This document shows positions 20,114 through 63,695 of a stretch of 64,000 bases of DNA, piece by piece. Under the pieces are notes generated by a model, which was not told the origin of the DNA, did no database searches, and saw nothing but the letters and a program-made list of their open reading frames with translations. This DNA comes from Bdellovibrionales bacterium (GTDB lineage: Bacteria > Bdellovibrionota > Bdellovibrionia > Bdellovibrionales > UBA1609), in contig CBDETO010000005.1 of the NCBI GenBank assembly GCA_965243065.1, forward strand, positions 987,520 to 1,051,519, in the 5' to 3' direction. Each line of letters starts with the position of its first letter. Position 1 is the first letter of the stretch. The translations under genes were made by a program, and so were the position numbers.

Positions 20114-21157
20114 TTATTGGGTATCTGCTGTTTCCACTAAGAAGCGCAACACCAAATTTTTAGCCTCTTGATAACCCTTCTCTAAATAGACATCACCTAT
20201 TAAAACATAAAAAGCATTCTCTATATTATAAGGTCTTTCTGGATGATTCCATATCACATTAAAAACTTGCTCCAAAAGACTTCTATCTTCGTGATTTAAA
20301 CGATCTAAATCTATTTTATAAATAGATTCCCGCAATAATCTCCTCTTTTTATGTAAATATTCCACTTTTTTATTAGGGTATTGCTCCATCACTATTTCTG
20401 TAATCAATAATATTAAACCTGCAAGTCCTACAACTTGCACTTTGTTCCTGTAAAAGTATTTTATAGGAAACTGGAGCTGTTCTATTTTTTTCCACTCTGC
20501 GAAATGCATACTAGAACGATTCAAATCCGTATATTCTACTCCATTTATGATCCCTGTATCAATAGCTACATTAACCAAACGAACTACCAGCTTTTTAGCT
20601 TCTCGATAACCTCCATCTAAATACACCGCCCCCACCAAAGCTTCCAATACCTTCGCCAACAAAATTGATTTTCTGTTGCTACTTACATCTTTTCCAGCAT
20701 ATTGATCTAATTTAAGAGAAAAAGCCAACGCAACCATAGCCCTGTTTGCTTTCAAGTGATTCCACCCTTTCATTAATTCTATATAACGACCGGGAGGATA
20801 TTGACTTACTAATGTATCAAAGGCATAAAAATTAAAAACAGCATCTCCTAAAAACTCTAATCGCCGACTGTGAAAATAATGTTTTCCATGTTCTCTTATT
20901 TGATCTTTGTTCGTAGCTGTAAAGTAGTGTAGAGCATCTGTCTTTAGTTTTTGATTTTTAAAAGAGTACCCTAAACTTCTCTCTAATAAACCATCCGGGA
21001 CATTTTGAGGCACATCCGATGGAATATAAATAAATATACTTTCTTTATTTCTTTTAAAACCATCCGAACACTCTTCACCAATAATATAAAAATGAATTAA
21101 ACACAGTAGAACACAAACAAAAAAAGGGTTCCTATAAATAAACACTCTAATAGCCAC
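20114..21157 (-). CDS. RNase III paralogue with N-terminal hydrophobic anchor and a second, degenerate RNase III-like domain; no dsRBD
   Basis: RRLEFLGDAVFNF and VLEALVGAVYLDGGYREAKKLVVRLV are near-identical to the adjacent rnc. The C-terminal half repeats the pattern (VVGLAGLILLITEIVMEQYP ... AFYVLIGDVYLEKGYQEAKNLVLRFL) without the acidic residues. Confidence 0.7.
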   Translation of the reverse strand: MAIRVFIYRNPFFVCVLLCLIHFYIIGEECSDGFKRNKESIFIYIPSDVPQNVPDGLLERSLGYSFKNQKLKTDALHYFTATNKDQIREHGKHYFHSRRLEFLGDAVFNFYAFDTLVSQYPPGRYIELMKGWNHLKANRAMVALAFSLKLDQYAGKDVSSNRKSILLAKVLEALVGAVYLDGGYREAKKLVVRLVNVAIDTGIINGVEYTDLNRSSMHFAEWKKIEQLQFPIKYFYRNKVQVVGLAGLILLITEIVMEQYPNKKVEYLHKKRRLLRESIYKIDLDRLNHEDRSLLEQVFNVIWNHPERPYNIENAFYVLIGDVYLEKGYQEAKNLVLRFLVETADTQ

Positions 21158-21442: not shown

Positions 21443-22189
21443 TCACTCCTGCTTTTGAGAGATAGGAGCTATTCCTAGTTTTTTTAAAGCGGCTAGAGCC
21501 GCTTCCTGCGTGGCTTGTTTTTTACTGGACCCTTTTCCCTGGCCTAAAACCTTTTGATCCATTTGCACTTCCATTACAAAGACTTTATCATGTTGAGGTC
21601 CTTTTATTTCCACTGTACTATAGGTGGGAACTTTCTGAAATTTCTTCTGAATACACTCTTGAAGGAAGCTTTTATAATCTTTATTCACCGGTCCGGTTTT
21701 TATGGCCTCCCCCACTAACCGCATCACCAATTTTTTAGCTTGCTTATATCCCCCATCCAGATAAACCGCCCCCACTAAAGCCTCCAATACACAAGCTAGA
21801 AGCCGAGGTTTTAATTTTCCTCTATCTCTTTCTTCAGCAGCACTCAATTTCAGATCCTTATCCAAGCCTAAAAAAAGAGCTAAATCAGCCAGATCATTTG
21901 TATTCACCAACGAAGCCCGCATCTTAGATAGCTCTCCTTCATCTGCAAAAGGGTATTCCTGCATCAATAAATCACTCACACACAAATCAAAAACAGCATC
22001 CCCTAAAAATTCCAAACGTTCGTTATGAAAATCATTTCCCTTTTCTCCGGCTAAACTCTTATGAGTTAAAGCGCGTATTTTTAAATTTTTGTTTTTAAAA
22101 GAATAAGCAATACGGCTTTCCAATGAAAGATCGGAAGAGGGCCCTTTTCTTCTCTGCCATAGTGAACGAACAAAAGTTTTCATACTCAT
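21443..22189 (-). CDS. rnc: ribonuclease III
   Basis: NERLEFLGDAVFDL signature, VLEALVGAVYLDGG, and a C-terminal dsRBD (GPQHDKVF...GKGSSKKQATQEAALAALKKL). Confidence 0.9.
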   Translation of the reverse strand: MSMKTFVRSLWQRRKGPSSDLSLESRIAYSFKNKNLKIRALTHKSLAGEKGNDFHNERLEFLGDAVFDLCVSDLLMQEYPFADEGELSKMRASLVNTNDLADLALFLGLDKDLKLSAAEERDRGKLKPRLLACVLEALVGAVYLDGGYKQAKKLVMRLVGEAIKTGPVNKDYKSFLQECIQKKFQKVPTYSTVEIKGPQHDKVFVMEVQMDQKVLGQGKGSSKKQATQEAALAALKKLGIAPISQKQE

Positions 22190-32404: not shown

Positions 32405-32622
32405 AAATAAAATTAGTCACGAACATATTTTACAACATGACATTTCTACCATTACAAAGATTTTTTTTCGTTTTTCGATAAACCCCACTAAAAATCTCAT
32501 AATGATACAAAGTGCTGTAAAATAAATAGTCACTTTTCCCGAGTTCGACACAGAGCAATACATAGTGGTTTTATGCAAAAACTAAACACCTCTTTAGTAG
32601 CTCCCCATCCCATGAAAACATT

Positions 32623-32831
32623 GTCATCCCCGCGAAAGCGGGGACCTCTTATAGGTAAAGCCGGATAATATGCTATGTTATTTGTCATCCCCGCGAAAGC
32701 GGGGACCTCTTATAGGTAAAGCCGGATAATATGCTATGTTATTTGTCATCCCCGCGAAAGCGGGGACCTCTTGATCGCTTAAAGGAAGGTATTAATTTAA
32801 GAGTTGTCATCCCCGCGAAAGCGGGGACCTC
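32623..32831. repeat. 4-copy hairpin-repeat array with exact 61-nt period (CRISPR-like geometry, probably not CRISPR)
   Basis: GTCATCCCCGCGAAAGCGGGGACCTC starts at 32623, 32684, 32745 and 32806. The intervening ~33-35-nt segments 1 and 2 are identical and segment 3 is unrelated. Confidence 0.85.
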
Positions 32832-32881: not shown

Positions 32882-35764
32882 TTAATTTTTATTCTTCTCG
32901 ACTTTTTGTTGTGCCTCTTCTATATCCTTAAGCTTTATTTTTAATTGTGTGAGTTCTTTTTGTTGCGATGTAAGTGCTTCCTGCTGTGATGTAAGGATTT
33001 CTTGTTGTAAAAGAATAAGGGTGTTTAATTTCTTTATCTCCTCTTTCTCTTTGGCCCATGTCTTTTTTATTTCCTCTATTTCGTTTATAATAACTGTTAC
33101 CTTTTCTGTAAGTGTTTTTATTGCCGACGAGGTATTTTCTTTAATGGCTATTACCTCCTCTGTTACTTTTTTTAATGCTGACAAAGTGTTTTCTTTAAAA
33201 CCTTCAAATTTAATAATTAAAGCTTTTATAGCAGCCCAAAAGGTCCCGTAAATAGAAGGCATATCTGGCATAGAAGGCTGGCCTTTGTCTTTAATCTGAA
33301 GATAATGGGGCAATTCCTCGGAAATAAAACCCATACGACTTTTATTTGGGTGGTCCTCTTTGTACTCATAAGTAAATAAAGGGGTCTTTTTTATATCTTT
33401 ATAAACTCTCTCAAAGTTTTTAAATTTTTTAATGTTTTTCTTATACACCCGAGAGGAGGGAGTGCCATGACTGTGACCCGCAGGAGCGTAGCCACTATGA
33501 CCATGACCGGATGGAGAGTAAGGATGAGTATGAGCATCTAGGGCATGGTGACCATTATGATTATGACCAGGCATGGAAGGACAAGTAGAACCACCACAGC
33601 TAAATACCCCCGAGGTGAGATTAATACCCCCTTCCACCTCAAGTCCATCTGCATGCACCTTTAGTTTTTTTGCAACATCTAAAGTCCCATGAATCACAGC
33701 CCCAGGAGAAGAGGGAATGAAAGGATTGGAGGAGGGGGGGGCACTCGTATTTAACTTTCCTAAAATTAAGTTTCCGATATTCAGTTGGTTGGATCCTGTT
33801 TTGCTAATTCCCACATGGGATCCAGAATTAGGTGGCCCTACCTCACTCCCTATATATATGTTTTCATTACCTGAAGTATTATATATACCTGCTTGAAATC
33901 CCAAGAAGGTATTTTTATCTCCCGTGCAGTTCACAGACCAAGCCTGTCTTTCTGCTTCACCGCCAGGGTCAACCCAAAGATATGTAAATGGAGTGGAAGG
34001 TATGCATATCCCAGCATTACCTCCTAAAAACACATTTTGTTTTCCTGTCCCATAAAATGCCCCCGAGTGAAATCCTACAAAAGTATTTTCACCCGCTTTA
34101 TTAAAATACCCCGATCCTCCACCTACATAAAGATTATGAATAGATGTTTCATTATATTTTCCTGTTGCAGCTCCTAAGAAAGTATTCTGTGATCCTGTTA
34201 TATTCGACCTACCCGCATCCATCCCTAAAAAGGTATTCCAACGAGCTGTATTTGAGTTTTGACCCGCTCGTGCCCCTATATAGGTATTACCCACGCCAGT
34301 TGCATTAAGTCTTCCTGCCTTGTGACCTATAAAAACATTGTGAGAAGCTTCAAAAATACTACTGGTTGTGTCATCTTCTGTGGTGTATTTACCCGCTTCG
34401 TGCCCCACAAAGACATTGTTCCGCGCAGTTGTAGCACTAAAACCTGCATAACGACCTATATAGACATTTTCATCCCCTGTAGTATTAGAGTGGCCTACAG
34501 CAGCACCTATAAAGATGTTACTTTTACCGGTGGTATTAAAATAACCTGCATTACTACCCAAAAAAACATTGCTACTACCCAAAGTATTGGCATAGCCTGC
34601 TTGATAACCTACAAAAGTGTCGTTACTACCCAAAGTATTAGAATAACCCGTATGATAACCCATAAAAACATTAAATGCTCCTTTCTGATTAACAACTGTA
34701 CCTGGTATAGTATTAATCCCCGACTCAAATCCAAAGGCCGTCACCGTGCTGACAGGTATCTTTGAGGTGCCCCCACAACCTATTAAAGCTCTTCCTTTGC
34801 CCAATTCTGAACCAGGAGAAATTAAACGTTCAACACTATCAGGGTGTACATTCTGAGTTATAGAAGGCCCATCAAAATCCACCGTATAACAAGAGATATT
34901 GTCCCCACCTACGCAATTTAAAGTATCACAGGCTACGACATCCGGGTTACTCGCCACATTCTCCAACCTATAATCCAGATCACATTCCAAAAAGTAACAC
35001 CCGCTCGTATCACTGCTGGTACAATCACCCCCATCTAATGTGTTTAAATCCTTTGTCTGCTTCTTGCTGTAATACACCACAAATTTTCTATTTACTGTAG
35101 CTGTCTTAGGGTTCTGAGTTGCATCACCTGTAAGTTCTAGCTTTACAATATCCAAGTTCCCCTTAAAAGACTTCCCCTCCTCCAGCAAGGCCACACCATC
35201 TTGCTCCAACTTACTAATCGTGCCTATCCCCTTTTGACTGTTACTCCCTGTAAGTCTGCCCGCTTCCGGCTTTAAATTAGCCTTACAGTAATTATCATTT
35301 GTAAGAATGTTATTTACGGCTATTCGTAACTCCTGCTCAGAAAAAGTCCCTCTTACCACCTGAGAAGACTGCATAGATACCGTGGCTAATTGCAGGGTCC
35401 CCACAGTAATCACCGCCATTAAACCTATGACTACCAGAATCTCCAATAAGGAAAATCCACCTTTGTTGCAAAGCTGGCCCAGAGAAAACAAAGATGGCTT
35501 CCCGTTTCCGCAGTCTATCCAGGAAAACAATTTCCAAGGAAACAAGCTTGATACTGGATCAGATGGATTCCCGCTTCCGCGGGAATTGCACCTGCTCACT
35601 TTCGTAAGGACTAGCCTCGAGGGGAGCTTTGTCCCCGCTTCCACTTTCGAAAGCTTTGCGGAAAATAACCGGATGAATATACCTGAAGTTAGTTCTCTGA
35701 ATGAATGAATGAATGAATGAATGAATGAATGAATGATTTTTTCACACTTCTTACTTCCCTGCAA
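32882..35764 (-). CDS. type IV pilin-like N-terminus fused to tail-fibre-like repeats, HxH cluster, S74-type intramolecular chaperone domain and coiled coil
   Basis: NKGG|FSLLEILVVIGLMAVITVG prepilin motif at codons ~100-125. G/N/T-rich 13-16-aa repeats. GHNHNGHHALDAHTHPYSPSGHGHSGYAPAGHSHG. SSRVYKKNIKKF...LFTYEYK...RMGFISEELP. Start ambiguous: TTG 35764 (longest ORF) or TTG 35491 (GGGAAG 6 nt upstream, 12-aa leader). Confidence 0.7.
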   Translation of the reverse strand: MQGSKKCEKIIHSFIHSFIHSFRELTSGIFIRLFSAKLSKVEAGTKLPSRLVLTKVSRCNSRGSGNPSDPVSSLFPWKLFSWIDCGNGKPSLFSLGQLCNKGGFSLLEILVVIGLMAVITVGTLQLATVSMQSSQVVRGTFSEQELRIAVNNILTNDNYCKANLKPEAGRLTGSNSQKGIGTISKLEQDGVALLEEGKSFKGNLDIVKLELTGDATQNPKTATVNRKFVVYYSKKQTKDLNTLDGGDCTSSDTSGCYFLECDLDYRLENVASNPDVVACDTLNCVGGDNISCYTVDFDGPSITQNVHPDSVERLISPGSELGKGRALIGCGGTSKIPVSTVTAFGFESGINTIPGTVVNQKGAFNVFMGYHTGYSNTLGSNDTFVGYQAGYANTLGSSNVFLGSNAGYFNTTGKSNIFIGAAVGHSNTTGDENVYIGRYAGFSATTARNNVFVGHEAGKYTTEDDTTSSIFEASHNVFIGHKAGRLNATGVGNTYIGARAGQNSNTARWNTFLGMDAGRSNITGSQNTFLGAATGKYNETSIHNLYVGGGSGYFNKAGENTFVGFHSGAFYGTGKQNVFLGGNAGICIPSTPFTYLWVDPGGEAERQAWSVNCTGDKNTFLGFQAGIYNTSGNENIYIGSEVGPPNSGSHVGISKTGSNQLNIGNLILGKLNTSAPPSSNPFIPSSPGAVIHGTLDVAKKLKVHADGLEVEGGINLTSGVFSCGGSTCPSMPGHNHNGHHALDAHTHPYSPSGHGHSGYAPAGHSHGTPSSRVYKKNIKKFKNFERVYKDIKKTPLFTYEYKEDHPNKSRMGFISEELPHYLQIKDKGQPSMPDMPSIYGTFWAAIKALIIKFEGFKENTLSALKKVTEEVIAIKENTSSAIKTLTEKVTVIINEIEEIKKTWAKEKEEIKKLNTLILLQQEILTSQQEALTSQQKELTQLKIKLKDIEEAQQKVEKNKN
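35495..35655. repeat. cluster of hairpin repeat units inside the 5' leader of the pilin-fibre ORF
   Basis: GGATTCCCGCTTCCGCGGGAATTGCA (35565-35590), GTCCCCGCTTCCACTTTCGAAAGC, GGCTTCCCGTTTCCGC. Confidence 0.65.
35698..35736. repeat. tetranucleotide simple-sequence tract (TGAA)9+TGA; (ATTC)9 on the coding strand
   Basis: Counted directly. Translated in the track ORF as IHSFIHSFIHSF. Confidence 0.95.
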
Positions 35765-36006: not shown

Positions 36007-37185
36007 ATGTTGAAACCAAGGTATTTACAATCGGCTATACAAAAGGATGCTTTAAAAGATCGTAAAATGGCTTTTATAAGTGGCCCCAGACAGGTGGGAA
36101 AAACCACTTTAGGAAAGCAACTTTTAAAAGATAAAAACAATTATTTTTCTTGGGATCAAACAGAATTTAGAAAAACATGGGTTAAATTTCCGGAAAAAAT
36201 ATTAGAAAACATTGGTATAGGTCCTATTCTTTTTGATGAAATTCATAAGGACAGAAAGTGGAAATCAAAAATTAAAGGTATTTACGATACCTATTCCGAA
36301 GAACTAGATATTTTAGTCACGGGAAGCGCAAAGTTGGATATCTACCGAAAAGGAAATGACAGCCTTCTAGGAAGATATATCCCTTATCGTTTGCATCCTT
36401 TTTCGGTTTCAGAATCTCGTACTCCACCCCATCCAGATGATATATTAAAAACATTTAAGATTTCTTATAATTGGAAAGACCTGATGGTATTGGGCGGGTA
36501 CCCCGAGCCTTTACTTTCTGGAAGAGAAAATAAAGCGCAAAGGTGGTCACGGCTCAGATTAGACAGATTAGCTTATGAAGATACCAGAGATATCAAGGTT
36601 TTATCTAACTTAAATGCGTTTAGAGTTTTATTGGATCTGATTCCTGAAAAGGTGGGATCTCTTTTTTCCTTTAATTCTTTAAAAGAAGATGTGGGTGTAG
36701 CTTATGCTACAGTGAGAGAGTGGGTTTTGTTATCTGAGTTGCTATATTATGGTTTTTTTGTCAAACCGTATTCAAAAGGTTTTAAAAGATCTATAAGAGC
36801 TGAACCTAAGTTTTACCTCTATGATATCTTACAAATTCCCAAATCCGAACATGCTAAACGATTAGAAAATTTAACAGCTCTTCATCTTATAAAAATCTGC
36901 CACTTTTGGACAGATACCGGTGCAGGACTTTTTGATTTATTTTTTGTCAGGGATAAAGAAAAAAGAGAAGTGGATTTTTTAATAACCAAAGATAAAAAAA
37001 CTTGGATGCTTGTAGAATGTAAATCACAATCAAAAAATATATCTCCCCTCTTACTTTATTACTCAAAACAACTAAAAACTCCTTTAAACTTTCAATTAGT
37101 TGATGAAAATAAGTACGACAAAAAGCACCGTATTCAAAATGTCAGAGTGATGGAGTATGAAAAGTTTTTTTCAGGCTTGATCTAA
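36007..37185 (+). CDS. AAA-type ATPase of the COG1373 / DUF4143 family
   Basis: 392 aa. Walker A GPRQVGKTTLGKQL, Walker B-like ILFDEIHK, and a C-terminal restriction-endonuclease-like REVDFLI...VECK. Confidence 0.7.
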   Translation: MLKPRYLQSAIQKDALKDRKMAFISGPRQVGKTTLGKQLLKDKNNYFSWDQTEFRKTWVKFPEKILENIGIGPILFDEIHKDRKWKSKIKGIYDTYSEELDILVTGSAKLDIYRKGNDSLLGRYIPYRLHPFSVSESRTPPHPDDILKTFKISYNWKDLMVLGGYPEPLLSGRENKAQRWSRLRLDRLAYEDTRDIKVLSNLNAFRVLLDLIPEKVGSLFSFNSLKEDVGVAYATVREWVLLSELLYYGFFVKPYSKGFKRSIRAEPKFYLYDILQIPKSEHAKRLENLTALHLIKICHFWTDTGAGLFDLFFVRDKEKREVDFLITKDKKTWMLVECKSQSKNISPLLLYYSKQLKTPLNFQLVDENKYDKKHRIQNVRVMEYEKFFSGLI

Positions 37186-46624: not shown

Positions 46625-47800
46625 TTAATGAGCGGGAGAATCACCGTACCCGACAGGAGCACCACAAAATATAGGTTTTCCATTATAAGTTTTAGAGTGG
46701 CTGTGACCCTTATCCCCGGTCGCCGGTCCACAGTTTATAGTACGGTGCTGACATTTACTGCCAGTAAAATAAGGACCTATCGGTGTGCCTTTTTCTACCT
46801 GACATGTGCAAGTTTTCTGCCATTTATGAGTATGTAATCCTCCAACATTTTCTCCTTCACCACAGAACCGATGACTACCCAAGTTCTCTCTCGTGAAAGT
46901 GTGTGTTATATATTCTTTTTTTGGTTGTGGTCGTCTTGGTGGTCTTGGTTTGTAAATGATGGATCCCGTAGTTGATCCGCTACTGGACCCCGTAGTTGAG
47001 CTAGATGTACTAGGTAGTGATACTACTGTACCTGATCCCGCCGGTCCCCTAGGCCCTGGGGGCCCTGGAGGTACCGGATGACATGTTTTAATACCACTAC
47101 TATTAAATCCTCCTAAATACTGTCCTGATGGACAAATCTGCGAACCAATAAGAGTGGATCTGTTTAAGCAGATCTTATTACCATTACTATCAAAGCCTTT
47201 TAAGTATTCATTAGTTGCACACTCCCCTAAATCCTGACAGATTTTATTCCCATTACTATCAAATCCCTTTAAGTACTTGCCTGATCCACAACTAATACCT
47301 GCTATATGATTCTCCCCCAATCCTGCACAATTTTGCACATCACATACCTCTACATTCGGACTGGCATTGTTCTCTAACTTATACTTCAAACTACATCCCT
47401 GAAAATAACAACCCTCTACATTAGAACTGTTACAGGGCTTATCCTCCATTGTCCCCACTCCCTTCTTCTTGTAATAAACTATAAAATCCCTAATCACTGT
47501 ACTGGTCTTGGGATTACCTGTACCACTACCCGTAAAATCCATCTTCACTACCTCTAAAGTATTTTTAAAACCACCCACCTTTACTAAAGTGGTATCCTCT
47601 ACATTCGGGTCACCTAAACCCTGTATGAGCGTGCTTACTGTACCTTTACCATTGGTGGCACTTATACCCCCACTGCTGGGTTTGAGATTAGCCTTACACG
47701 GAATAGTATTGGTTAATACTTTACTTATAGACCATATAAGGGACTGCTCGGCTGAGGAGGCTTGAATGGTTTTAGAGGAATGAAGAGAAACAGCAATCAT
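46625..47800 (-). CDS. pilin-like modular surface protein, paralogue of 32882..35764; its prepilin leader lies upstream (to ~47950) and lacks an in-frame start codon
   Basis: The track ORF starts at an internal Met. The same frame upstream reads LKRNKG|LSIIEALAAAFIGGVVLAGTGK. The next ~150 aa align with the 960-aa paralogue (CKANLKP, NPKT.TV.R.F.VYY.KK, GCYF..C.L.Y.LEN). The C-terminus has Cys-rich YLKGFDSNGNKIC repeats, GPPGPRGPAGSG, an S/T-rich linker and HxH motifs. Confidence 0.7.
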   Translation of the reverse strand: MIAVSLHSSKTIQASSAEQSLIWSISKVLTNTIPCKANLKPSSGGISATNGKGTVSTLIQGLGDPNVEDTTLVKVGGFKNTLEVVKMDFTGSGTGNPKTSTVIRDFIVYYKKKGVGTMEDKPCNSSNVEGCYFQGCSLKYKLENNASPNVEVCDVQNCAGLGENHIAGISCGSGKYLKGFDSNGNKICQDLGECATNEYLKGFDSNGNKICLNRSTLIGSQICPSGQYLGGFNSSGIKTCHPVPPGPPGPRGPAGSGTVVSLPSTSSSTTGSSSGSTTGSIIYKPRPPRRPQPKKEYITHTFTRENLGSHRFCGEGENVGGLHTHKWQKTCTCQVEKGTPIGPYFTGSKCQHRTINCGPATGDKGHSHSKTYNGKPIFCGAPVGYGDSPAH

Positions 47801-47952
47801 TTTCCCTGTTCCCGCTAAGACAACTCCTCCTATAAAAGCCGCTGCTAAAGCCTCTATAATAGATAAACCTTTATTGCGTTTAAGAGGATTATACCGGTTC
47901 GGTTTAAGAACACGCTGAGACTTGACTTTTATCTCATTTTGAGACGAAAATG

Positions 47953-48193
47953 TGATTGGTGATTGGTGATTGGTGATTGGTGATTGGTGATTGGTGATTG
48001 GTGATTGGTGATTGGTGATTGGTGATTGGTGATTGGTGATTGGTGATTGGTGATTGGTGATTGGTGATTGGTGATTGGTGATTGGTGATTGGTGATTGGT
48101 GATTGGTGATTGGTGATTGGTGATTGGTGATTGGTGATTGGTGATTGGTGATTGGTGATTGGTGATTGGTGATTGGTGATTGGTGATTGGTGA
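47953..48193. repeat. heptanucleotide simple-sequence tract, 34 perfect copies of TGATTGG (CCAATCA on the coding strand) plus a partial copy
   Basis: Counted: 47953..48190 = 238 nt = 34 x 7. The two track ORFs 47929..48246 and 47934..48206 are just (ITNHQSP)n translations of it. Confidence 0.97.
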
Positions 48194-48327
48194 CTATAAT
48201 ATACATTCATATCTGTAATCTCCTTATCGAAAAAGTTACTTAACAATCCCTGAAAAATGGCTCTTATTCAAAATTTCCCCAACAAGAGGGAAAAATGAGT
48301 TAGGCCCTTGAGAGCACAATGCGACTA

Positions 48328-49046: not shown

Positions 49047-49979
49047 ATGGCTATTCACACCAACCATCACGATCAGTTCTTTAAGTTCTTCTTCTCTAAA
49101 ACAGAACTGGCCCAAGAATTACTTGAACTTATTTTCTCTAAAGAAGAACTAAAAGCCTACGACCTAACAAAACTAAAAGCAGAGCAAAACTCCTTCCCCG
49201 ATGGCCGTAGTGCAGACCTCATCTTCTCCCTACCTCTGAAAAACAACAAAAAATCCGAAGTTCGTATATTTATACTGCTCGAACACAAATCCTCTTACAA
49301 TGTAAAGGTTTTTGAACAGCTTTTCCGGTACCAATATCTGCTTATCGAACAAAGCTTAAGTAAGGAAGGAGTCATTACCCCTATTATCTGTGTTGTCTTC
49401 TCTCATGGAAAAACACCACGGAAGTGGAAGCTCTCTTTCCAGGAGGCTTTAGGGGATCCGGATTTTTTAACTTTGCCTCTTACTTTTAGAAAAAGTATGT
49501 TAAACTTTGAGATAAGGCTTTTGGACATACAGGATAAGCAGTGGGGGTGGGTGTTTAAGAACTCTCATTTTCAAATTCGGGGTGTTTTATATTTGTTACG
49601 GGAAGTATGGTCAGGAGAGTTAAACTTTAAAACAGTATGTTTTCTTTTTAAAGAGATGTTGCAAAGGCAAAGGGATACAGAAGGCATAATATTAAACATA
49701 CTGAAGTATTTACTGAAGGGCTATAAGATGAAGCCAGAGCTATGTGAGAAAATGGAGTTAGAGATGATAAAAGAGGATTTAATAAAAAAGGGAGGTTATA
49801 TGGACGCAAGGGACTATTTTAGAGAAGAAGGACGACAGGAAGGACGACAAGCCGGACGGAAAGAAAGAGATAAAGAAGTAATTTTAAATATGCTGAAAGA
49901 AAAAGCGGATATTGCTTTTATTTCGAAAGTGACAGGTTTGTCTGAAAAAGCAATCAGAAAATTAAAAAACGGCTCTTAA
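49047..49979 (+). CDS. Rpn-family recombination-promoting nuclease / PD-(D/E)XK putative transposase (YhgA-like)
   Basis: 310 aa. HHDQFFKFFFS...AQELLE, ADLIFSL...IFILLEHKSS, typical of the Rpn/PDDEXK_2 family. C-terminal GRQEGRQAGRKE repeat. Confidence 0.7.
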   Translation: MAIHTNHHDQFFKFFFSKTELAQELLELIFSKEELKAYDLTKLKAEQNSFPDGRSADLIFSLPLKNNKKSEVRIFILLEHKSSYNVKVFEQLFRYQYLLIEQSLSKEGVITPIICVVFSHGKTPRKWKLSFQEALGDPDFLTLPLTFRKSMLNFEIRLLDIQDKQWGWVFKNSHFQIRGVLYLLREVWSGELNFKTVCFLFKEMLQRQRDTEGIILNILKYLLKGYKMKPELCEKMELEMIKEDLIKKGGYMDARDYFREEGRQEGRQAGRKERDKEVILNMLKEKADIAFISKVTGLSEKAIRKLKNGS

Positions 49980-50239: not shown

Positions 50240-51490
50240 TCACCAATTCATCACAATAGGAATTTTATTTTTTTCACACACTTGTTCTAACTCCCGTTTA
50301 TTCTTTCGGTCCTCGGCTAATACAAGCAAACAGCCGCCCCCACCTGCCCCACAGAGTTTGACCTCTTTAGCACCATGACTCCTCATTAAATCAATAAGAG
50401 AAGATACAGAAGGGTTCAACCAATTGGAAAAATACTTGCCTCTTAATGCTTGTTCTTTGTTCAAACAAATAAATAAATCAGACCAATTTTCCTGACGGCA
50501 AATTTCCAAGGTCTTTAAAGCGTTGTCTCTAAGTTGATAGATACCATTTAAAATATCCTGATCTTTTTCAATAATTTTTTTTAATATCTCCCAATTATTA
50601 TTCCCAGAGTGATGGCTGTGCCCCGTATCTACTAATAGAAAATGATCTTTAAAAAAAGCGATAGGAATTTTTTTTCTACTCCATTTAGGGCCGGAAGAAA
50701 TACATTCAATAACATAAAGAAAATCCGGTTCTTCCTCTATAGCAGGAACATAATCCTGAACCCCCGCAGGAGCATGCAGCAAAGAAGTTTCTAAATCCCG
50801 ACATAGCATCAATAATTCATTTTTCGTTAGCTCTTTTTTCAATACAGAAGAAAGTACTTTCGCCAAGCCCACACAGAGGCTGGAACTGGCACCCAACCCG
50901 CCCCCTACGGGAGACTCTGACCTTAGAGAAATACTTTTTAGAAAAACCTGCTCCTTTGGCATATACCTACTCCAATATTCCAGATGTGTTTTTAATAATC
51001 TGAGTTCATCTGAAGAGTCTTTTAATAGATTATTTAAGCTTGTAAAAGAGTTTTTATAAGACCCAGAGGGGGAAAAAATACTCACATCTATTTTTGCTTT
51101 ATCAAAATGACGAGCCTCCCTAACATGAGAAACTCCCCGGGAAGAGTTGTCATCCCTTTGAAAATAAGTGTCCAGAATTAGTTTTTCTGGATTCCCGCTT
51201 TCGCGGGAATGACATTTTTCGCGGGACGGGAAGCCACCAAAGTGGCTTCCCGCTTCGTGGGATGGAAAGGCAACAACTTGCCTTTCTGTTTGAGCAGAAA
51301 TAACATCATTTTCTGTTTGAACAGAAGTAAAAACAGGAATAGAAAAGTTAAGCACAACACAATCGGGCACAAGAGCATACACAGGCCAAATATCCAACAA
51401 GCCTCCAGCCAAATCCACTCTTGTTGGACTTTTTACACTATACTTATACATTTTGTGTTCATCCATAATTAGCACCATTATAAAAATCAT
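50240..51490 (-). CDS. GHMP-family sugar kinase carrying an in-frame hairpin-repeat insertion
   Basis: PTRVDLAGGLLDIWP (motif I), SPVGGGLGASSSLCVG (motif II), LCGAGGGGCLLVLA (motif III). Start uncertain (Met codons at 51490, 51478, 51466, 51451). Confidence 0.7.
   Translation of the reverse strand: MIFIMVLIMDEHKMYKYSVKSPTRVDLAGGLLDIWPVYALVPDCVVLNFSIPVFTSVQTENDVISAQTERQVVAFPSHEAGSHFGGFPSREKCHSRESGNPEKLILDTYFQRDDNSSRGVSHVREARHFDKAKIDVSIFSPSGSYKNSFTSLNNLLKDSSDELRLLKTHLEYWSRYMPKEQVFLKSISLRSESPVGGGLGASSSLCVGLAKVLSSVLKKELTKNELLMLCRDLETSLLHAPAGVQDYVPAIEEEPDFLYVIECISSGPKWSRKKIPIAFFKDHFLLVDTGHSHHSGNNNWEILKKIIEKDQDILNGIYQLRDNALKTLEICRQENWSDLFICLNKEQALRGKYFSNWLNPSVSSLIDLMRSHGAKEVKLCGAGGGGCLLVLAEDRKNKRELEQVCEKNKIPIVMNW
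51189..51286. repeat. modular hairpin repeat (units A-B-C) inside the GHMP kinase ORF
   Basis: GGATTCCCGCTTTCGCGGGAATGACATTTTTCGCGGGACGGGAAGCCACCAAAGTGGCTTCCCGC..., near-identical to 63548..63620. Translated as AFPSHEAGSHFGGFPSREKCHSRESGNPEK. Confidence 0.85.
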
Positions 51491-51727: not shown

Positions 51728-52885
51728 ATGAAAAAGGTCAGATTTTTTTGTTTTTTATCTTTATTAACTGTGTTTCCCGGTCTCTGTTATTCTGCCAAGA
51801 AAAAGTCTTCAGTTTGCAAAACAATGTTTGCAAATGAGGGGGAGAACTTTGAAGACTTGTTTCCGTTCAAGAACTTTGTTCAGCTTATGGTAGATCTTAA
51901 AATTTATTCCACCCTAGATTTGGTTAAAGCAAAAAGAGACGGGGATTTTCCTGAAGAGGTTCCTGATAAACCTCTACAGACTTATCCTGAACTAGAAGGA
52001 AAATGGAGTTTGCTATGGGATACAGTGCATGCTCTTCATTTATCTCAAAGGGAAGATGTAGCTAAGCGGAGAAAATGGACGACGAGTGAGGTTCGAGCCT
52101 TTATAAAAGAAGTCTTGAAGACAGAAAGTCGGCGTAACAGCCAAATAAATAAAGTAGGGGAGCATGTTCCAGAGAGGCAGAAAAAAATCGGGAGAAAAGC
52201 CTTGTCTAGCCACGTGCCGGCAGCCCTGATAGCTCATAATGAAAGACTGAGAAAAAACCAGGAAGAAGTGCTTTCTTTAATAGCCAAGAATCCTCAAATA
52301 AAGGTAGAGGAGTTGGCAGAGCAGATGCAAATACCAAAGAGACCCACAGAGCAGATAATTTCTAAGTTAAAAGAAGGAGGCCATCTGGTGAGAGTGGGAA
52401 GGACTAGTAAATATGGATACTGGGAGGTTTTTAAAGAAGGAGAGAAAGTGTCTGCTTCTGTTGTCAGCCTGCAAAGCGAGCGGGAGAGTAAAATGCTTTC
52501 TTTAATAGCCAAGAATCCTCAAATGAAGGTAGGAGAGTTGGCAGAGCAGATGCAATTATCAAATAGACTCACAGATGAGATAATCTCTAAGTTGAAAGAA
52601 GGAGGCCATCTGGTGAGAGTGGGAGGGAGCAGTAAATATGGATACTGGGAGGTTTTTAAAGAAGGAGAGAAAGTGTCTGCTTCTGTTGTTAGCCTGCAAA
52701 GCGAGCGGGAGAGTAAAATGCTTTCTTTAATAGCCAAGAATCCTCAAATGAAGGTAGGGGAGTTGGCAGAGAAGATGCAAATATCAGAGAGATCCGCAAG
52801 GGGGATAATCTCTAAGTTGAAAAAAGAAGGCCGGCTGGTGAGAGTGGGAGGGAGCAGTAAATATGGATACTGGGAGGTACTTTAG
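51728..52885 (+). CDS. signal-peptide protein with three tandem winged-helix (HTH) DNA-binding-like modules
   Basis: MKKVRFFCFLSLLTVFPGLCYSA signal-like N-terminus. Three copies of LSLIAKNPQMKVGELAEQMQ.S.R....IISKLKEGGHLVRVGGSSKYGYWEV. Confidence 0.6.
   Translation: MKKVRFFCFLSLLTVFPGLCYSAKKKSSVCKTMFANEGENFEDLFPFKNFVQLMVDLKIYSTLDLVKAKRDGDFPEEVPDKPLQTYPELEGKWSLLWDTVHALHLSQREDVAKRRKWTTSEVRAFIKEVLKTESRRNSQINKVGEHVPERQKKIGRKALSSHVPAALIAHNERLRKNQEEVLSLIAKNPQIKVEELAEQMQIPKRPTEQIISKLKEGGHLVRVGRTSKYGYWEVFKEGEKVSASVVSLQSERESKMLSLIAKNPQMKVGELAEQMQLSNRLTDEIISKLKEGGHLVRVGGSSKYGYWEVFKEGEKVSASVVSLQSERESKMLSLIAKNPQMKVGELAEKMQISERSARGIISKLKKEGRLVRVGGSSKYGYWEVL
52268..52885 (+). repeat. 225-bp tandem repeat, 2.7 copies, within the CDS
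   Basis: CTTTCTTTAATAGCCAAGAATCCTCAAAT starts at 52271, 52496 and 52721, an exact 225-nt spacing. Confidence 0.9.
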
Positions 52886-60351: not shown

Positions 60352-61236
60352 ATGCAATCCTGGTTAGAATATCTTGCTTTTTTAAGCTGGCAAAATCAAA
60401 GTTTGGTTTTAGAAGATTTTGAAAATGTCTTTCGAAACCAAAGTAGGATTCATTCTGCCTGGCAGTTAATTAATTTTATCTCCCAACCGAAAACAAAACA
60501 TTATCTCCAACATCAAAAAAATTGGTGGAAACAGGCAGAAAAAGATAAAAAAGATTGCAAAAGTTTAAAAATTCATACTTTTTGGCCTTTTCATCCAAAC
60601 TACCCTCAAACTCTTTTCAAGATGGAAAAACCACCCATGCTTATTAGCTGGAAAGGAGAAAGAGAGTTTTGCTGGAAAAATTATTTTCTTTTTTCTGTGG
60701 TAGGGAGTAGAGAACCTTATCGAGATACTCTACTTTGGATGGATATGCACTTAAGTCTCTTCCTGAAAAGAAAAAAAGGAGAAGTTTGTGTTATGAGTGG
60801 AGGAGCAAGAGGGGTAGATCAAAAAGCACATGCTCTATGCTTGGCTTCTCAAAATCCCACGCTTTGTTTTTTACCTTGTGGAATAAAACATTATTATCCC
60901 TCTGCTTTAAAGAAGTGGGAAAAACCTATTATACAAAGTGGAGGTGGCTTCGTCAGTGTTTTTCCTTTATCAGCACCTATGCAAAAATCTCATTTTCACA
61001 TTCGAAATAAAACTCTGGCTTTTTTATCTGATATGATCTTGATAGCACAAGCCCAATCCAGAAGCGGAACAATGGTAACAGCCCGTTATGCTTTAGATGC
61101 GGGAGTGACTATATCTGCCTTACCAGGGAGTGCTCTTTATTCTGGATACAGAGGTAACCTTAGTTTAATCAACGATGGTTGTTTTATGCTTCGAGATCAC
61201 TTGGATTTGGAAACTCTTTACCACTCTTGTAGATGA
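60352..61236 (+). CDS. dprA: DNA-processing protein DprA (Smf)
   Basis: VVGSREP...SGGARGVDQKAHALCL...AQAQSRSGTMVTARYALDAG is the DprA Rossmann-like core. Confidence 0.8.
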   Translation: MQSWLEYLAFLSWQNQSLVLEDFENVFRNQSRIHSAWQLINFISQPKTKHYLQHQKNWWKQAEKDKKDCKSLKIHTFWPFHPNYPQTLFKMEKPPMLISWKGEREFCWKNYFLFSVVGSREPYRDTLLWMDMHLSLFLKRKKGEVCVMSGGARGVDQKAHALCLASQNPTLCFLPCGIKHYYPSALKKWEKPIIQSGGGFVSVFPLSAPMQKSHFHIRNKTLAFLSDMILIAQAQSRSGTMVTARYALDAGVTISALPGSALYSGYRGNLSLINDGCFMLRDHLDLETLYHSCR

Positions 61237-61865
61237 CTACCGCTAAAGGCTTTGGGTTTAAAGTCTTTTTTATTGACCAGTCTGGCACTGTCTCCTGTAG
61301 CTTGGATAAGAAATAAACCCTCTCCTTCCGCAAGCAAGTGAGCCTTATTCTCACTAGCTAGATAAGCCATAGCTCCATAGATAGTTTCCGTTTTATATCT
61401 TCGAAAGTAATTTCTAAAATCCCTAAGTGTTTCTAAAAAAACAGTGACATCTTTGGGAACTAAAGTGGTTTTTACTTCTACAACCACAACTTCTGTTCCA
61501 TTGGCAACAATAATATCAAACTCCCGCCTCTCAATACGACCATCCGGCTTTCTCCATTCCGATTTAGAGCGGGTATGCGTTTGTGTTATATCTATCCTAT
61601 GATCTTGAAAAATTTTTACCAGCTTCCCTTCAACTAAAGACTCCACTAAAGCTCCCCATCGTTGGTTAAACCGGCCCCCTATTTTTTGTATTTGCCGGTC
61701 GGTTTCTTTTTGGCTAGCACGGATTTCTTTCATGTCTTCTTTGTGGCTGGCACGGATTTCTTTCATATCCTCTTTGTGGCTGGCAGAAGCTTCTTTTAGG
61801 CTTTTCTGAGTCTCTTTTATAAGTACCCAAATCTCATCCGCTGGCGATATTGTGGATTTATTCAT
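61218..61865 (-). CDS. PD-(D/E)XK-fold protein with N-terminal coiled coil
   Basis: EFDIIVANGTEVVVVEVKTT is a D...E-x-K restriction-endonuclease-like core. The N-terminus has a duplicated ASHKEDMKEIR, encoded by a 33-nt tandem repeat at 61713..61778. Confidence 0.55.
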   Translation of the reverse strand: MNKSTISPADEIWVLIKETQKSLKEASASHKEDMKEIRASHKEDMKEIRASQKETDRQIQKIGGRFNQRWGALVESLVEGKLVKIFQDHRIDITQTHTRSKSEWRKPDGRIERREFDIIVANGTEVVVVEVKTTLVPKDVTVFLETLRDFRNYFRRYKTETIYGAMAYLASENKAHLLAEGEGLFLIQATGDSARLVNKKDFKPKAFSGSHLQEW

Positions 61866-62564: not shown

Positions 62565-63695
62565 TTATTTTTGTAAAGGCCAATCAAAGTGAATTTTCAC
62601 ACGAGCCGCCCACAGGTCATTCGTTAAATGTCCCTTTATTTGTGAACTAATAAAACGCTCTCCTATTAAGGTGATATTAGGGTGAACCTGATACGAAACT
62701 TGGAACACTCTTTCATAAAGAGAAGATTGAGTTTGCCCAGGTTTAAAGTGAGAAGAATATCTGTTTATATTTCCAAAAACCATTCCCACTTTTAGTTTAT
62801 CAATAGCGATACTAGGGAAAGTATAATATGTAAAAGTGGTTTGCTCTCTTTCTTTAATTCCCCAAAATTCAGATTGAAGGGATACTCGTAGTTTTTTGTA
62901 CGAAGTATGTAAATAAATACCTCCTCCATAAGTTTTAAGAGGATCAAAGAAAGCCAGGTCTTTTTCAAACCAACTGGCGAAAGCATCCCAAAAAAATCCC
63001 TCACTTCTGACACTGATTATAACAGGGGCGGACTCTGGTGCTCTATAGGAGTCATCTTGCTCTCTATAAAGCCAGCCTCCAAAATAACTCAATTTCAAGC
63101 TTAAAAATTTTTTCCAAATATATAGATCCGCAACAGCCCCTATGTCTTTCTGACTCCAAGCCAGGACCTTATAAAAAGATAGGTTTTGAGAAAACACATT
63201 ATTGTTCTTACCTTTGTAACCAAGAGGAATGGGAAACCATCCGGCTTTTACACTAAGTGGAATCACCTCACAATCATAAGAAAGGCTCATCTCCTCCAAG
63301 CCTATTTCCCACTTGTTTTTATAAGACTCTATTTCTCCGTTGATAAAGATATTCAAGTTACTGTCTTTAGAATAAAGCAATCCTATTTCCGTATAGGGTA
63401 TATAAGGATGCCACTGTTTTTGATTTCGGGAGATTTGATTCTTAGATAGGCGGCCTTCACTTTCCAGTTGAAAGGAGAAAGCGTGCTCTGTTTGTTCCTG
63501 AGAAAACACAAAGAAAGGAATAAGTAGAATAAAAATAAAATAATTCTGGATTCCCGCTTTCGCGGGAATGACATTTTTCGCGGGACGGGAAGCCACCAAA
63601 GTGGCTTTCCGTTTCGTGAAACAAGGAGCCACCAAAGTGGCTTTCCGTTTAGAGAAGTGAATAACTAGCTTTCGCAGGCAGTATATATATATCAT
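62565..63695 (-). CDS. putative outer-membrane beta-barrel protein; N-terminal ~50 codons are hairpin-repeat sequence
   Basis: Alternating-hydrophobic strands through most of the sequence. The signal-like FIFILLIPFFVFSQE is preceded by repeat-encoded KRKATLVASRPAKNVIPAKAGIQ. No canonical start codon lies directly before the signal-like segment. Confidence 0.4.
   Translation of the reverse strand: MIYIYCLRKLVIHFSKRKATLVAPCFTKRKATLVASRPAKNVIPAKAGIQNYFIFILLIPFFVFSQEQTEHAFSFQLESEGRLSKNQISRNQKQWHPYIPYTEIGLLYSKDSNLNIFINGEIESYKNKWEIGLEEMSLSYDCEVIPLSVKAGWFPIPLGYKGKNNNVFSQNLSFYKVLAWSQKDIGAVADLYIWKKFLSLKLSYFGGWLYREQDDSYRAPESAPVIISVRSEGFFWDAFASWFEKDLAFFDPLKTYGGGIYLHTSYKKLRVSLQSEFWGIKEREQTTFTYYTFPSIAIDKLKVGMVFGNINRYSSHFKPGQTQSSLYERVFQVSYQVHPNITLIGERFISSQIKGHLTNDLWAARVKIHFDWPLQK
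63548..63650. repeat. modular hairpin repeat, units A-B-C-C (best-preserved copy)
   Basis: GGATTCCCGCTTTCGCGGGAATGACA | TTTTTCGCGGGACGGGA | AGCCACCAAAGTGGCTTTCCGTTT, with the last unit present twice. Confidence 0.9.

Follow-up and report, generated by a model that had tools for sequence, protein, structure and literature searches.

Repeat-slippage phase variation is a textbook property of host-adapted pathogens such as Neisseria, Haemophilus and Campylobacter; to our knowledge, environmental and predatory bacteria have scarcely been examined for it. In opa the repeat encodes the hydrophobic core of the signal peptide, by which both the unit and its length are constrained. The PilV shufflon of IncI1 plasmid R64 joins a constant pilin N-terminus to alternative C-terminal tips which set binding specificity, and swaps these C-termini by site-specific inversion within one gene.

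Close counterparts are already described. In Neisseria, (CTCTT)n is located in the leader-peptide coding region of opa, and a poly-G tract in the signal-peptide region of pilC (PMC5354566). The neuO gene of E. coli K1 carries 3-53 copies of (AAGACTC)n in its 5' coding region, where they encode a repeated heptapeptide; just one of the three length classes modulo 3 is ON, and about two-thirds of the genomes sequenced have the gene OFF (PMC13001214). In Haemophilus influenzae, licA (lic1), whose repeat is (CAAT)n, possesses starts upstream of the tract in two of the three frames, two length classes being ON and one OFF (PMC2212159). Among pilins, the modular PilB and PilC of Streptococcus sanguinis combine a class III signal and a pilin module with varied grafted C-terminal modules that likely serve in pilus-tip adhesion (PMC8179133). 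The class III signal of type IV pilins corresponds to IPR012902 / PF07963 (N_methyl). The prepilin leader has Gly or Ala as its last residue, with a stretch of about 21 mainly hydrophobic residues behind it; it lies in the cytoplasm, and cleavage takes place on that side of the membrane (PMC10191384).

From the arrangement described below, we propose that a heptanucleotide tract in the window (the whole 64-kb stretch of DNA that was analysed) is probably the hypermutable element of a translational phase-variation (contingency) switch for a type IV pilin-like modular pilin.

Results and discussion

Tract and reading frames of window gene 1

Window gene 1 was called as ORF 46625..47800 on the minus strand. 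Its features, in the direction of transcription, are:

48220..48225, minus strand: SD-like AAGGAG, read from the sequence, 9 nt before ATG 48210
48204..48210, minus strand: two start codons in two frames, with ATG 48208-48210 at offset 2 and ATG 48204-48206 at offset 1 relative to the pilin frame
48194..48196, minus strand: TAG closing the pilin frame directly 5' of the tract, which leaves the third frame start-less
47952..48193, minus strand: candidate hypermutable tract, (TCACCAA)34.57 on the coding strand, giving the cyclic heptapeptide SPITNHQ in all three frames and a stop in none
47929..47936, minus strand: frame traps, TGA 47934-47936 and TAA 47929-47931, which end both ATG frames just past the tract
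47867..47951, minus strand: leader spacer FSSQNEIKVKSQRVLKPNRYNPLKRNKG, whose last codon (47867-47869) is that of the predicted cleavage Gly
47804..47866, minus strand: LSIIEALAAAFIGGVVLAGTG, the predicted N-terminus of the mature protein, which has Glu at +5 and a hydrophobic alpha-1N helix of 21 residues
46625..47866, minus strand: body of the pilin-like modular protein, with its stop codon at 46625-46627

The original prediction counted 34 perfect heptads, and exactly 34 TGATTGG units are present on the plus strand at 47953-48190; TRF reported a period-7 register at 47952-48193 with 34.57 copies, 100% matches and a score of 484. The pilin frame is open upstream as far as the TAG at 48194-48196. 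It had also been claimed that this frame has no start codon of its own, and indeed the 132 codons between that TAG and ORF 46625..47800 contain no ATG, GTG or TTG. The pilin frame translates as (SPITNHQ)11SPITFSSQNEIKVKSQRVLKPNRYNPLKRNKG followed, after the predicted cleavage site, by LSIIEALAAAFIGGVVLAGTGKM.

Direct reading bore out the SD sequence and the two upstream ATG codons in the other two frames. These ATG codons, 48208-48210 and 48204-48206, lie 17 and 13 nt 5' of the tract, and the ORFs which begin at them stop at 47929 (TAA) and 47934 (TGA), respectively. Both stops sit in a 20-nt block, ATGAGATAAAAGTCAAGTCT, which is identical in the orthologous locus L119, and the leader spacer is open in the pilin frame only (no stops, versus five and one in the other frames). 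By frame arithmetic, ATG 48210 is fused to the pilin frame with 35 or 32 copies and ATG 48206 with 33 or 36, in agreement with the 35 and 33 copies originally calculated. The locus thus displays a long perfect SSR at the 5' end of an open frame, a unit not divisible by 3, starts upstream of the tract whose frame depends upon copy number, and premature stops in the OFF frames.

Scanning around the locus for promoters and terminators revealed no sigma-70-like or other promoter-like site on the minus (coding) strand, and a weak terminator-like hairpin at 48294-48274. No Rfam families were found in the 64-kb window, and ARAGORN found no tRNA.

The pilin-like product

The prediction of a prepilin-type motif plus hydrophobic helix was sustained. 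The leader ends in Gly (KRNKG, immediately before LSIIEALAAAFIGGVVLAGTG) and is followed by about 21 mainly hydrophobic residues, and the frequent but not obligatory Glu at +5 is present (L1-S2-I3-I4-E5). Pfam N_methyl scored 17.4 bits on window gene 1 (query residues 22-45), which is below the cutoff of 21.2. The same domain was found in eight of the ten short-leader relatives tested, four of them above the gathering score: P0026 (25.4 bits), P0030 (21.4), P0038 (21.9) and P0040 (25.7). When in frame the leader of window gene 1 would be about 115 aa long, rather than the few to about 30 residues of a short hydrophilic leader.

The body consists of a conserved module of about 170 aa, repeats of the Cys-rich type CxxGxYLKGFDSNGNKIC, a linker that is collagen-like and rich in Ser/Thr, and a unique C-terminal tip that is likewise Cys-rich. 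The C-terminal part had no Pfam match, and the NCBIfam search returned no match. In the 'lollipop' fold of type IV pilins an alpha-1 helix about 50 residues long is packed against an antiparallel beta-sheet; the AF2 model (pLDDT 77, pTM 0.73) has a helix at residues 4-52 and seven strands. A Foldseek search of the PDB (best E=0.41) gave no significant match to solved pilins, so we do not claim membership of the pilin fold; the sole match of the family profile against the PDB was to the N-terminus of TcpA (E=0.041). Neither a prepilin peptidase (PilD) gene nor pilus machinery genes were found in the 64-kb window.

A family of modular proteins

Window gene 1 belongs to a family of at least 195 representatives (50%-identity clusters), from host genomes whose EF-G sequences are only about 70% identical. 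The proteins range from 150 to 1300 aa and share a conserved pilin-type N-terminal module of about 190 aa, followed by variable C-terminal modules which in relatives include Peptidase_S74, Peptidase_S8 (subtilase) and CXCXC. Like modular pilins, they therefore unite a pilin module with extra C-terminal domains that are not specific to pilus biology. Distant members P0014, P0015, P0018 and P0020 are without Glu+5. There are at least seven paralogues in this 2.08-Mb genome, and five of the same-genome paralogues have N-terminal modules that are 97-100% identical, with unrelated C-termini. A T2SSK-like gene lies 5 kb from P0012 in locus L122, and Rpn/Transposase_31 genes adjoin family loci in three genomes. 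A scan of metagenome contigs with family alignment A3 found no relatives.

The window holds one further member:

32882..35764, minus strand: window gene 2, an ORF of 960 aa with 41% identity to window gene 1 (tblastn, E=4e-38)

Its prepilin motif reads CNKGG before the cleavage site and FSLLEILVV after it, with Glu again at +5 (FSLLE) and the +1 codon at 35455, and it too is preceded by a repeat, a perfect (TTCA)9.75 at 35698-35736 (equivalently (TCAT)9.75, or (TGAA)9.75 on the plus strand).

Repeats at other family loci

The heptad tract greatly exceeds chance expectation. It and (TGAA)9.75 are the only non-homopolymer SSRs in the 64-kb window, and both lie 5' of its only two family members. 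In 131 kb comprising the window and the family loci, seven of the eight long SSRs are within 250 nt 5' of a family-member motif. Comparison of the homologous locus in relatives, proposed with the original prediction, revealed other repeats, of differing lengths and frames, at the same spot. Two paralogues in L121 carry (ACAT)19 versus (ACAT)33 (19.75 versus 33.75 units of TACA) between flanks that are 100% identical; L125 has (TTCGTCAC)38.6 at the same position in the gene; and L122 and L124, two paralogues from another genome, contain C21 and C22. Five unrelated repeat units thus share one position in the family, and none has a coding-strand stop or a length divisible by 3. An ATG 13-14 nt 5' of the tract is also present in L121 and L125. 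At all five loci no stop interrupts the pilin frame on its way from tract to motif (joint P ~3e-6), the other two frames having stops, and in four genes from three genomes (window gene 1, P0006, P0010 and P0016) no canonical start occurs between tract and motif.

Paralogues in the same genome also differ in their tracts, which for P0002, P0004, P0005 and P0031 are known from protein translations alone: P0002 reads as (TCACCAA)25.6, nine heptads fewer than window gene 1, and P0031 as (TCAGCAA)~30. Tract lengths therefore differ while flanks are conserved, in comparisons between paralogues rather than between strains. The encoded repeat peptides (SPITNHQ, SAISNQQ, TYIH, FVTSSLRH, LSFYRSIV and poly-Pro) are unrelated across members. 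Some repeat peptides, such as (LSFYRSIV)21, are hydrophobic, which might hinder membrane targeting.

The orthologue L119, from a short-read MAG, has only three imperfect heptads (AATCACC-CGTCACC-CGTCACC) at the tract site. It keeps AAGGAA 9 nt before its ATG, which is out of frame, and has an in-frame GTG at 17 nt from the SD; the proposed switch is thus not universal. A genome scan for (CCAATCA)4 yielded 118 loci in cyanobacteria, Bacteroidota and other groups, none of them in this lineage. The heptad is a common SSR in other groups, and its occurrence there is uninformative for the locus described here.

ON and OFF alleles

Both frame states are represented in the family, OFF at the DNA level and ON as database ORFs. 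In P0031, P0065 and P0126 an ATG 2-4 codons before the repeat peptide is in frame into the motif GFxLxE, in which cleavage would follow the Gly; P0031 starts with MCYK just before its repeat, and its ORF ends at 208 aa. Poly-Pro versions with a more distant upstream ATG (P0061, P0094, P0102, P0132 and P0164) are ON as database ORFs, and P0002 was also counted as such. The OFF genes are window gene 1, P0006, P0010, P0016 and P0012. All four long-tract genes for which DNA and an ATG just 5' of the tract are available (window gene 1, P0006, P0010 and P0016) are OFF, a result which is not significant ((2/3)^4 = 0.2). The ON alleles are database ORF calls only, and gene callers favour long ORFs.

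Among 161 family proteins, 85 have short leaders, 31 have long ones and 38 have calls that begin no earlier than the cleavage site. The short leaders are ordinary ones of 3-34 aa ending in Gly, and the longest leaders in the family reach 235 aa. About one-quarter of the family members in databases are mis-called from an internal Met because the true start is out of frame, a practical point for annotation.

Alternative explanations

The family might consist in part of decaying or silent copies, that is pseudogenes or unexpressed pilS-like donor cassettes, the repeats being neutral expansions in non-coding DNA. The 38 proteins whose calls begin no earlier than the cleavage site, the truncation of P0031, and P0007, in which the ATG of a short leader is mutated to CTG and 1 nt is inserted, are what such decay would leave, and the near-identity of the N-terminal modules among paralogues points to gene conversion; the adjacent Rpn/Transposase_31 genes are in keeping with this. 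We nevertheless regard it as unlikely, since the body ORFs are intact and long (391-960 aa), the spacers are stop-free, an SD-ATG just 5' of the tract is kept between species, no repeat unit contains a stop or has a length that is a multiple of 3, and ON alleles exist. Unlike pilS cassettes, moreover, which are devoid of the promoter and of the conserved 5' coding region and act solely as donors in recombination, these copies keep the complete 5' end: window gene 1 retains the SD, the ATG codons, the leader and a complete alpha-1N helix. Mis-assembly of the tract, or of its exact length, is scarcely credible. Repeats are error-prone to assemble, and the short-read MAG does break at such arrays (L126 has a scaffold gap, and in L120 a contig ends at (TGGAG)12), but the tract is perfect, lies between unique flanks inside a 2.08-Mb contig, and has counterparts in several independent assemblies and in same-genome paralogues. 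A consensus error of one unit may have occurred; this would alter the called ON or OFF state and not the nature of the element.

The tract could instead act before translation, as a promoter or 5'-UTR element whose length tunes transcription or mRNA stability as in hmw1A and nadA, a short leader being made from a downstream, possibly non-canonical start. SSR switches of the 5'-UTR type are documented (PMC12721329). Window gene 2 and the poly-C members P0012/P0013 have an in-frame TTG 11-12 codons before the cleavage Gly; initiation there could give an ordinary short leader, and the tract would then be a 5'-UTR or promoter element. Window gene 1 has an in-frame ATA 22 codons before the Gly. Such a role needs neither open frames through tract and spacer nor stop-free units of lengths that are not multiples of 3, and it fits poorly with the start-less interval between tract and motif in window gene 1, P0006, P0010 and P0016, with ON alleles whose ATG lies 2-4 codons before the repeat, and with the promoter scan of the coding strand; we consider it highly unlikely. 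Reinitiation, or a near-cognate start, at ATA 47932 after TAA 47929 found no supporting evidence and was kept solely as part of this explanation. Transcriptional slippage as a frame bypass is plausible for the poly-C members only, and not for units of 4-8 nt. It is also unlikely that the frame switch is real and the extension is retained, yielding a bitopic membrane protein with a cytoplasmic repeat domain whose repeat number modulates function. Leaders of about 100-235 aa are far beyond those known to us from described prepilins, and we know of no precedent among prepilin peptidase substrates; in addition, P0014, P0015, P0018 and P0020 are without Glu+5. NeuO keeps its heptad-encoded N-terminal repeats, the number of which affects activity (PMC13001214). 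Against a retained domain, the repeat peptides of different members are unrelated, a point against any specific function; Gly(-1), Glu(+5) and the N_methyl signature are kept; and the mature module works without an extension in that 85 of the 161 members have ordinary leaders.

Proposed switch and its meaning

In the translational phase-variation switch which we favour, translation would start at ATG 48210, which has the SD, or with lower efficiency at ATG 48206. The ribosome would then pass through the repeat as (SPITNHQ)n, and would reach KRNKG and the adjoining LSIIEAL only if the copy number aligns the ATG in use with the pilin frame. With 34 copies both frames would end at the TGA or TAA just past the tract, leaving the gene OFF, and slipped-strand mispairing during replication would alter the copy number and toggle expression. 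As part of a class III leader, the repeat peptide would stay in the cytoplasm and be removed on the cytoplasmic face by a prepilin peptidase. Because such a leader is cytoplasmic and removed, repeats of any stop-free unit and of any length should be tolerated with the mature protein unaltered. The slipped-strand ON/OFF switch in a prepilin-like leader, OFF here, which was the core of the original prediction, gains support from the paralogue tract lengths, the ON alleles, the diversity of units and the stop-free spacers.

The design appears to be reused across the family with different repeat units. With its nearly constant pilin module and its varied C-terminal modules, the family would then provide a repertoire of adhesins, at the surface or the pilus tip, whose expression is stochastic. 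From gene sequences, we infer that populations would switch as described, that the two ATG codons would be used, that the leader would be cleaved, and that the products may be incorporated into pili and function as adhesins. Perhaps, and this we offer tentatively, this uncultured small-genome clade of Bdellovibrionales-like bacteria maintains banks of modular pilins with interchangeable adhesive tips, each switched independently of the others by an SSR, and repeats have repeatedly and independently been recruited into the class III leader, which would be a mutational "safe harbour" since it remains in the cytoplasm and is cut away.

On that tentative view, this would be the first contingency-locus system described in a prepilin leader, its leaders (to about 235 aa) would be the longest known among prepilins, and the system would amount to bet-hedging in how a predatory or epibiotic lineage, one not among the classical mucosal pathogens, recognises prey or hosts. 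A whole family here bears the hallmarks of contingency loci, the same position having been taken up by at least five unrelated repeat units. If our reading of the switch is correct, prepilin peptidases must be able to accept leaders that are 100-235 residues long and arbitrary in sequence. It would also be a clear case in which selection has put a mutable tract at a site from which its effects on the protein are removed. Stochastic diversification of pilus-tip or surface adhesins would bear on the prey or host choice of Bdellovibrio-like organisms.

Comparison with known systems

The original prediction had stated that there is no known precedent for a repeat in a cleavable leader, which is too strong given the (CTCTT)n of opa and the poly-G of pilC (PMC5354566). 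As in those genes, the SSR is found where the reading frame codes for a signal sequence that can be removed, and copy number sets the frame. The opa genes further resemble this family, as we read it, in being multi-copy surface adhesins that are independently switched (PMC5354566; PMC5320596). They differ in that opa and pilC encode Sec-type signal peptides, whereas here the repeat is in the hydrophilic cytoplasmic leader of a class III signal. The tracts here are 240-500 nt long, have many unrelated units and belong to an environmental Bdellovibrionales-like host, in contrast to the mucosal pathogen in which opa and pilC reside.

With neuO the locus shares a heptanucleotide unit translated as a heptapeptide repeat and a predicted ON or OFF state determined by length class modulo 3. 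In contrast to what is predicted for the proteins described here, NeuO is a cytoplasmic enzyme without a signal sequence, whose repeat domain is retained and whose activity is tuned by repeat number, and its gene is a single phage-borne one rather than a chromosomal paralogue family. The starts of licA in two frames match ATG 48210 and ATG 48206 with the third frame closed by TAG, but the unit of licA is a tetranucleotide, and its product is a choline kinase of the cytoplasm, with neither leader nor cleavage.

PilB and PilC resemble the present family in joining a pilin module to many kinds of C-terminal module. PilB has a 7-residue leader, and phase variation is not reported for it in PMC8179133; beyond alpha-1N the pilin module here also differs from PilB and PilC in having no significant sequence or structure match to solved pilins. 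In contrast to R64 PilV, the tips here are carried by separate paralogues, each with its own tip and its own putative SSR switch. The class of mechanism is thus already known from opa, pilC, neuO and licA. What appears to be new is the placement of an SSR in a prepilin (class III) leader of about 100-235 aa, and its family- and clade-wide use in non-pathogens.

Heptad tract and reading frames

Direct reading and TRF agree on the 34 perfect TGATTGG units first described (plus strand) at 47953–48190, with the period-7 register spanning 47952–48193 (34.57 copies, 100% matches). Upstream of the called ORF 46625..47800 (window gene 1, minus strand), the pilin frame is open for 132 codons, until TAG 48194–48196, and translates as (SPITNHQ)11-SPIT-FSSQNEIKVKSQRVLKPNRYNPLKRNKG|LSIIEALAAAFIGGVVLAGTGKM..., where | marks the predicted cleavage site. 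As had been proposed, this frame is start-less upstream of Met 47800, none of the 132 codons being ATG, GTG or TTG. Three features lie beyond the tract:

48220–48225, minus strand: AAGGAG, 9 nt upstream of the ATG at 48210
48210, minus strand: first ATG, offset 2 to the pilin frame
48206, minus strand: second ATG, offset 1 to the pilin frame

The two ATGs thus occupy the other two frames and run to the stops originally described, TAA 47929 (ATG 48210) and TGA 47934 (ATG 48206). The copy-number calculation of the original prediction was also right: fusion to the pilin frame requires 35 or 32 copies for ATG 48210 and 33 or 36 for ATG 48206. With 34 copies the sole open frame is the TAG-closed one, and the gene is OFF, i.e. 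with its upstream ATGs out of the pilin frame.

Repeat tracts in the family

Using tblastn within the window, a second family member was located, ORF 32882..35764 (minus strand, 960 aa; window gene 2), with the motif ...CNKGG|FSLLEILVV. Gly/Asn-rich repeats and a coiled-coil tail are present in its large C-terminal part. Apart from homopolymers, the 64-kb window contains no SSRs other than the tracts of these two genes.

Table. Tracts of window gene 2 and of relatives with available DNA sequence
Window gene 2: perfect (TTCA)9.75 at 35698–35736, 242 nt 5' of the motif
L120 (short-read MAG): 20-nt x3 array
L121 (two tandem paralogues): (TACA)19.75 vs (TACA)33.75
L122 and L124 (paralogues in one circular 2.0-Mb genome): C21 and C22
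L125: (TTCGTCAC)38.6
L126 (short-read MAG): 18-nt array

Seven of the eight long SSRs in 131 kb (window plus family loci) sit ≤250 nt 5' of a family-member motif, which suggests that a repeat tract is a trait of the family. The L121 paralogues are 100% identical over hundreds of bases on either side of the tract. In the short-read MAG, the L120 contig terminates in (TGGAG)12 (1–60), the L126 array is interrupted by a scaffold gap (run of N) at ~2650–2870, just 5' of a family member, and P0009 possesses an ordinary leader, MDWYHPLKRNKG|LSIIE. With short-read assemblies breaking at such arrays, SSR switches are probably under-reported in MAGs.

Comparison with related genomes supported the original prediction: relatives have tracts at the same position, but the orthologue of window gene 1, P0003 on L119, has just three heptads (AATCACC-CGTCACC-CGTCACC), the first being the unit of window gene 1. 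L119 keeps the divergent Rpn/Transposase_31 neighbour, the SD-ATG and a 20-nt block directly past the tract. Its three heptads indicate that the 34-copy tract arose by expansion of an ancestral short repeat.

Translation through the tract

Window gene 1, P0006 and P0010 (both on L121) and P0016, from three genomes, have a common architecture: an ATG 13–17 nt 5' of the tract, an open tract-spanning frame, stops in both other frames, and no canonical start between the tract and the cleavage Gly. The tract units are stop-free in every coding-strand frame, and none of their lengths (1, 4, 7 and 8) is a multiple of 3. At all five independent loci the tract-to-motif spacer lacks a stop in the pilin frame; based upon the window's six-frame stop frequency, this has a joint probability of ~3e-6. 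Stop-free spacers in OFF alleles cannot be produced by gene callers. The leaders of P0003 and P0031 carry insertions of ~45 aa, still in frame and without stops.

ON alleles occur as protein-database ORFs. P0031, MCYK(SAISNQQ)10...KRNKG|LSIIEAL, is encoded on the window's own contig (2,076,434 bp) by the unit TCAGCAA, one base off that of the window, and in P0002, from the same genome, an upstream ATG shares its frame with (SPITNHQ)8SPIT. Further examples are P0065 (MST(IVLSFYRF)7...NNQG|FGLIEIL), P0126 (MR(LSFYRSIV)21...FRG|FGLVESV) and, with poly-Pro leaders, P0061, P0094, P0102, P0132 and P0164. At L122 an SD-ATG ~40 codons upstream reads ...KLLKLLQKIT-PPPPPPP; it is out of frame at C21, and a tract of C20 or C23 would bring it into frame. 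Of the 161 family proteins that could be aligned, 85 carry leaders 3–34 aa long, 38 are called from the cleavage site or beyond, and 31 have leaders >35 aa, with perfect repeat peptides in 10 of the 31. All four DNA-level cases with an ATG just 5' of the tract are OFF, which is unremarkable because (2/3)^4 = 0.2 and neuO is OFF in 65.6% of genomes (PMC13001214).

The start-less members might be taken for pseudogenes or silent cassettes, given the many truncated ORF calls and the gene-conversion-like identity among paralogues; this is contradicted by intact bodies, conserved SD-ATG, leaders without stops and existing ON alleles. That the tract acts in a 5'-UTR or promoter is possible for window gene 2, P0012 and P0013, where in-frame TTG codons occur near the motif, but is ruled out for window gene 1, P0006, P0010 and P0016, which are start-less. 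A retained, functional repeat domain is unlikely, the repeat peptides being unrelated between members. An assembly artefact is excluded as the origin of the tract; the consensus copy number could be wrong by one unit.

From the family-wide tracts, stop-free spacers and ON alleles, slipped-strand translational phase variation, as originally predicted, is the best-supported model for window gene 1. Slippage would change the copy number, and the upstream ATG would be fused to the pilin frame only at a fitting one. The repeat would lie in the part of the ORF encoding a removable signal, a putative class III leader. Because such leaders stay cytoplasmic and are cleaved on the cytoplasmic face (PMC10191384), a repeat peptide of any sequence or length could be tolerated there.

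Pilin-like protein family

The Pfam N_methyl match of window gene 1 is sub-threshold (17.4 bits vs 21.2) and falls precisely at KGLSIIEAL.... HMMER, queried with the N-terminal 197 residues, returned 195 cluster representatives at E<=1e-3 (116 at E<=1e-10), 150–1300 aa long, the match invariably being a ~190-residue N-terminal module. N_methyl was matched in eight of ten short-leader relatives tested, four above the gathering score, and their C-terminal parts are unrelated modules, e.g. Peptidase_S74, subtilase and CXCXC. This architecture corresponds to that of modular pilins (PMC8179133). Against PDB, the sole match of the family profile was to the N-terminal 50 residues of TcpA pilin (E=0.041). 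AlphaFold, given a 17-sequence alignment, modelled the mature module (pLDDT 77, pTM 0.73) as a helix (residues 4–52) packed on seven strands, a predicted topology that is the general pilin 'lollipop'. Since Foldseek gave no significant PDB match for this model, we propose a class III signal and overall pilin topology and claim no specific pilin fold.

Five paralogues in the window's own genome have N-terminal modules 97–100% identical, mosaic CxxGxYLKGFDxxGNKxC Cys-rich repeats and unrelated C-terminal tips. Among named sequences, the window's EF-G is closest to those of 'Bdellovibrionales bacterium' MAGs (nearest 89% identity), and its clade also takes in many closed contigs of 1.6–2.2 Mb.

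Neighbouring genes and other repeats

A Transposase_31 / Rpn (YhgA-like) gene adjoins a family member in three genomes and may be connected with recombination among the paralogues, whose N-terminal modules are near-identical within one genome:

Window 49047–49979, plus strand
L119 8470–9537
L124 5391–6359

Two genomes have an AAA_14/DUF4143 ATPase gene close to family members: in the window (36007–37185, plus strand) it is oriented divergently to window gene 2, and on L121 (2540–3682) it sits between P0010 and P0006.

A dispersed 22-nt palindromic element, CATTCCCGCGAAAGCGGGAATC, has 11 copies at <=3 mismatches, vs 0 expected:

Window 12037, 32625–32829 (x4), 35566, 48570, 51190, 51601, 53198 and 63549

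It is also present in the leaders of L122, L124 and L126. The putative leader of window gene 2 holds two copies; inside pilin leaders the element translates as VIPAKAGI or SFPRKRES. Directly 3' of window gene 2, a 61-nt unit is repeated (x3.5, 32621–32831), and the element is present in each unit. Some copies lie in frame within ORFs, e.g. a GHMP-kinase-like gene (51190–51211) and ORF 62565–63695.

rpoA (6534–8066, minus strand) encodes a Pro/Thr-rich C-terminal extension of ~180 aa past the alpha-CTD, with 39-nt tandem repeats at 6800–6915 and a C10 run per repeat (coding strand). Such an extension is unusual for a core subunit of transcription, and the C-terminus may be polymorphic in length or frame. 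ORF 51728–52885 (plus strand), encoding three tandem winged-helix (HTH_24/MarR-like) domains, contains a 225-nt unit x2.7 at 52269–52878 (91% identity), and ORF 61218–61865 (minus strand, 215 aa, no assigned function) a 33-nt tandem repeat at 61704–61796 (2.5–2.8 copies, 86–91% identity). Two RNase III-domain genes are adjacent on the minus strand (20114–21157 and 21443–22189), one canonical with a dsRBD and the other a 347-aa RNase III-like protein without it.

Comparison with known systems

Our literature search yielded no account of SSRs within prepilin leaders or of contingency loci in Bdellovibrionota. None of the described prepilin leaders known to us comes close to 100–235 aa.

The class of mechanism is already well known. 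Start codons in two frames, like ATG 48210 and ATG 48206, are found in licA (PMC2212159), and neuO has a heptanucleotide coding repeat (PMC13001214), as proposed for window gene 1. The earlier view that the arrangement is without precedent overlooks opa and pilC (PMC5354566), in which, as proposed for window gene 1, the repeat lies inside the part coding for a removable signal.
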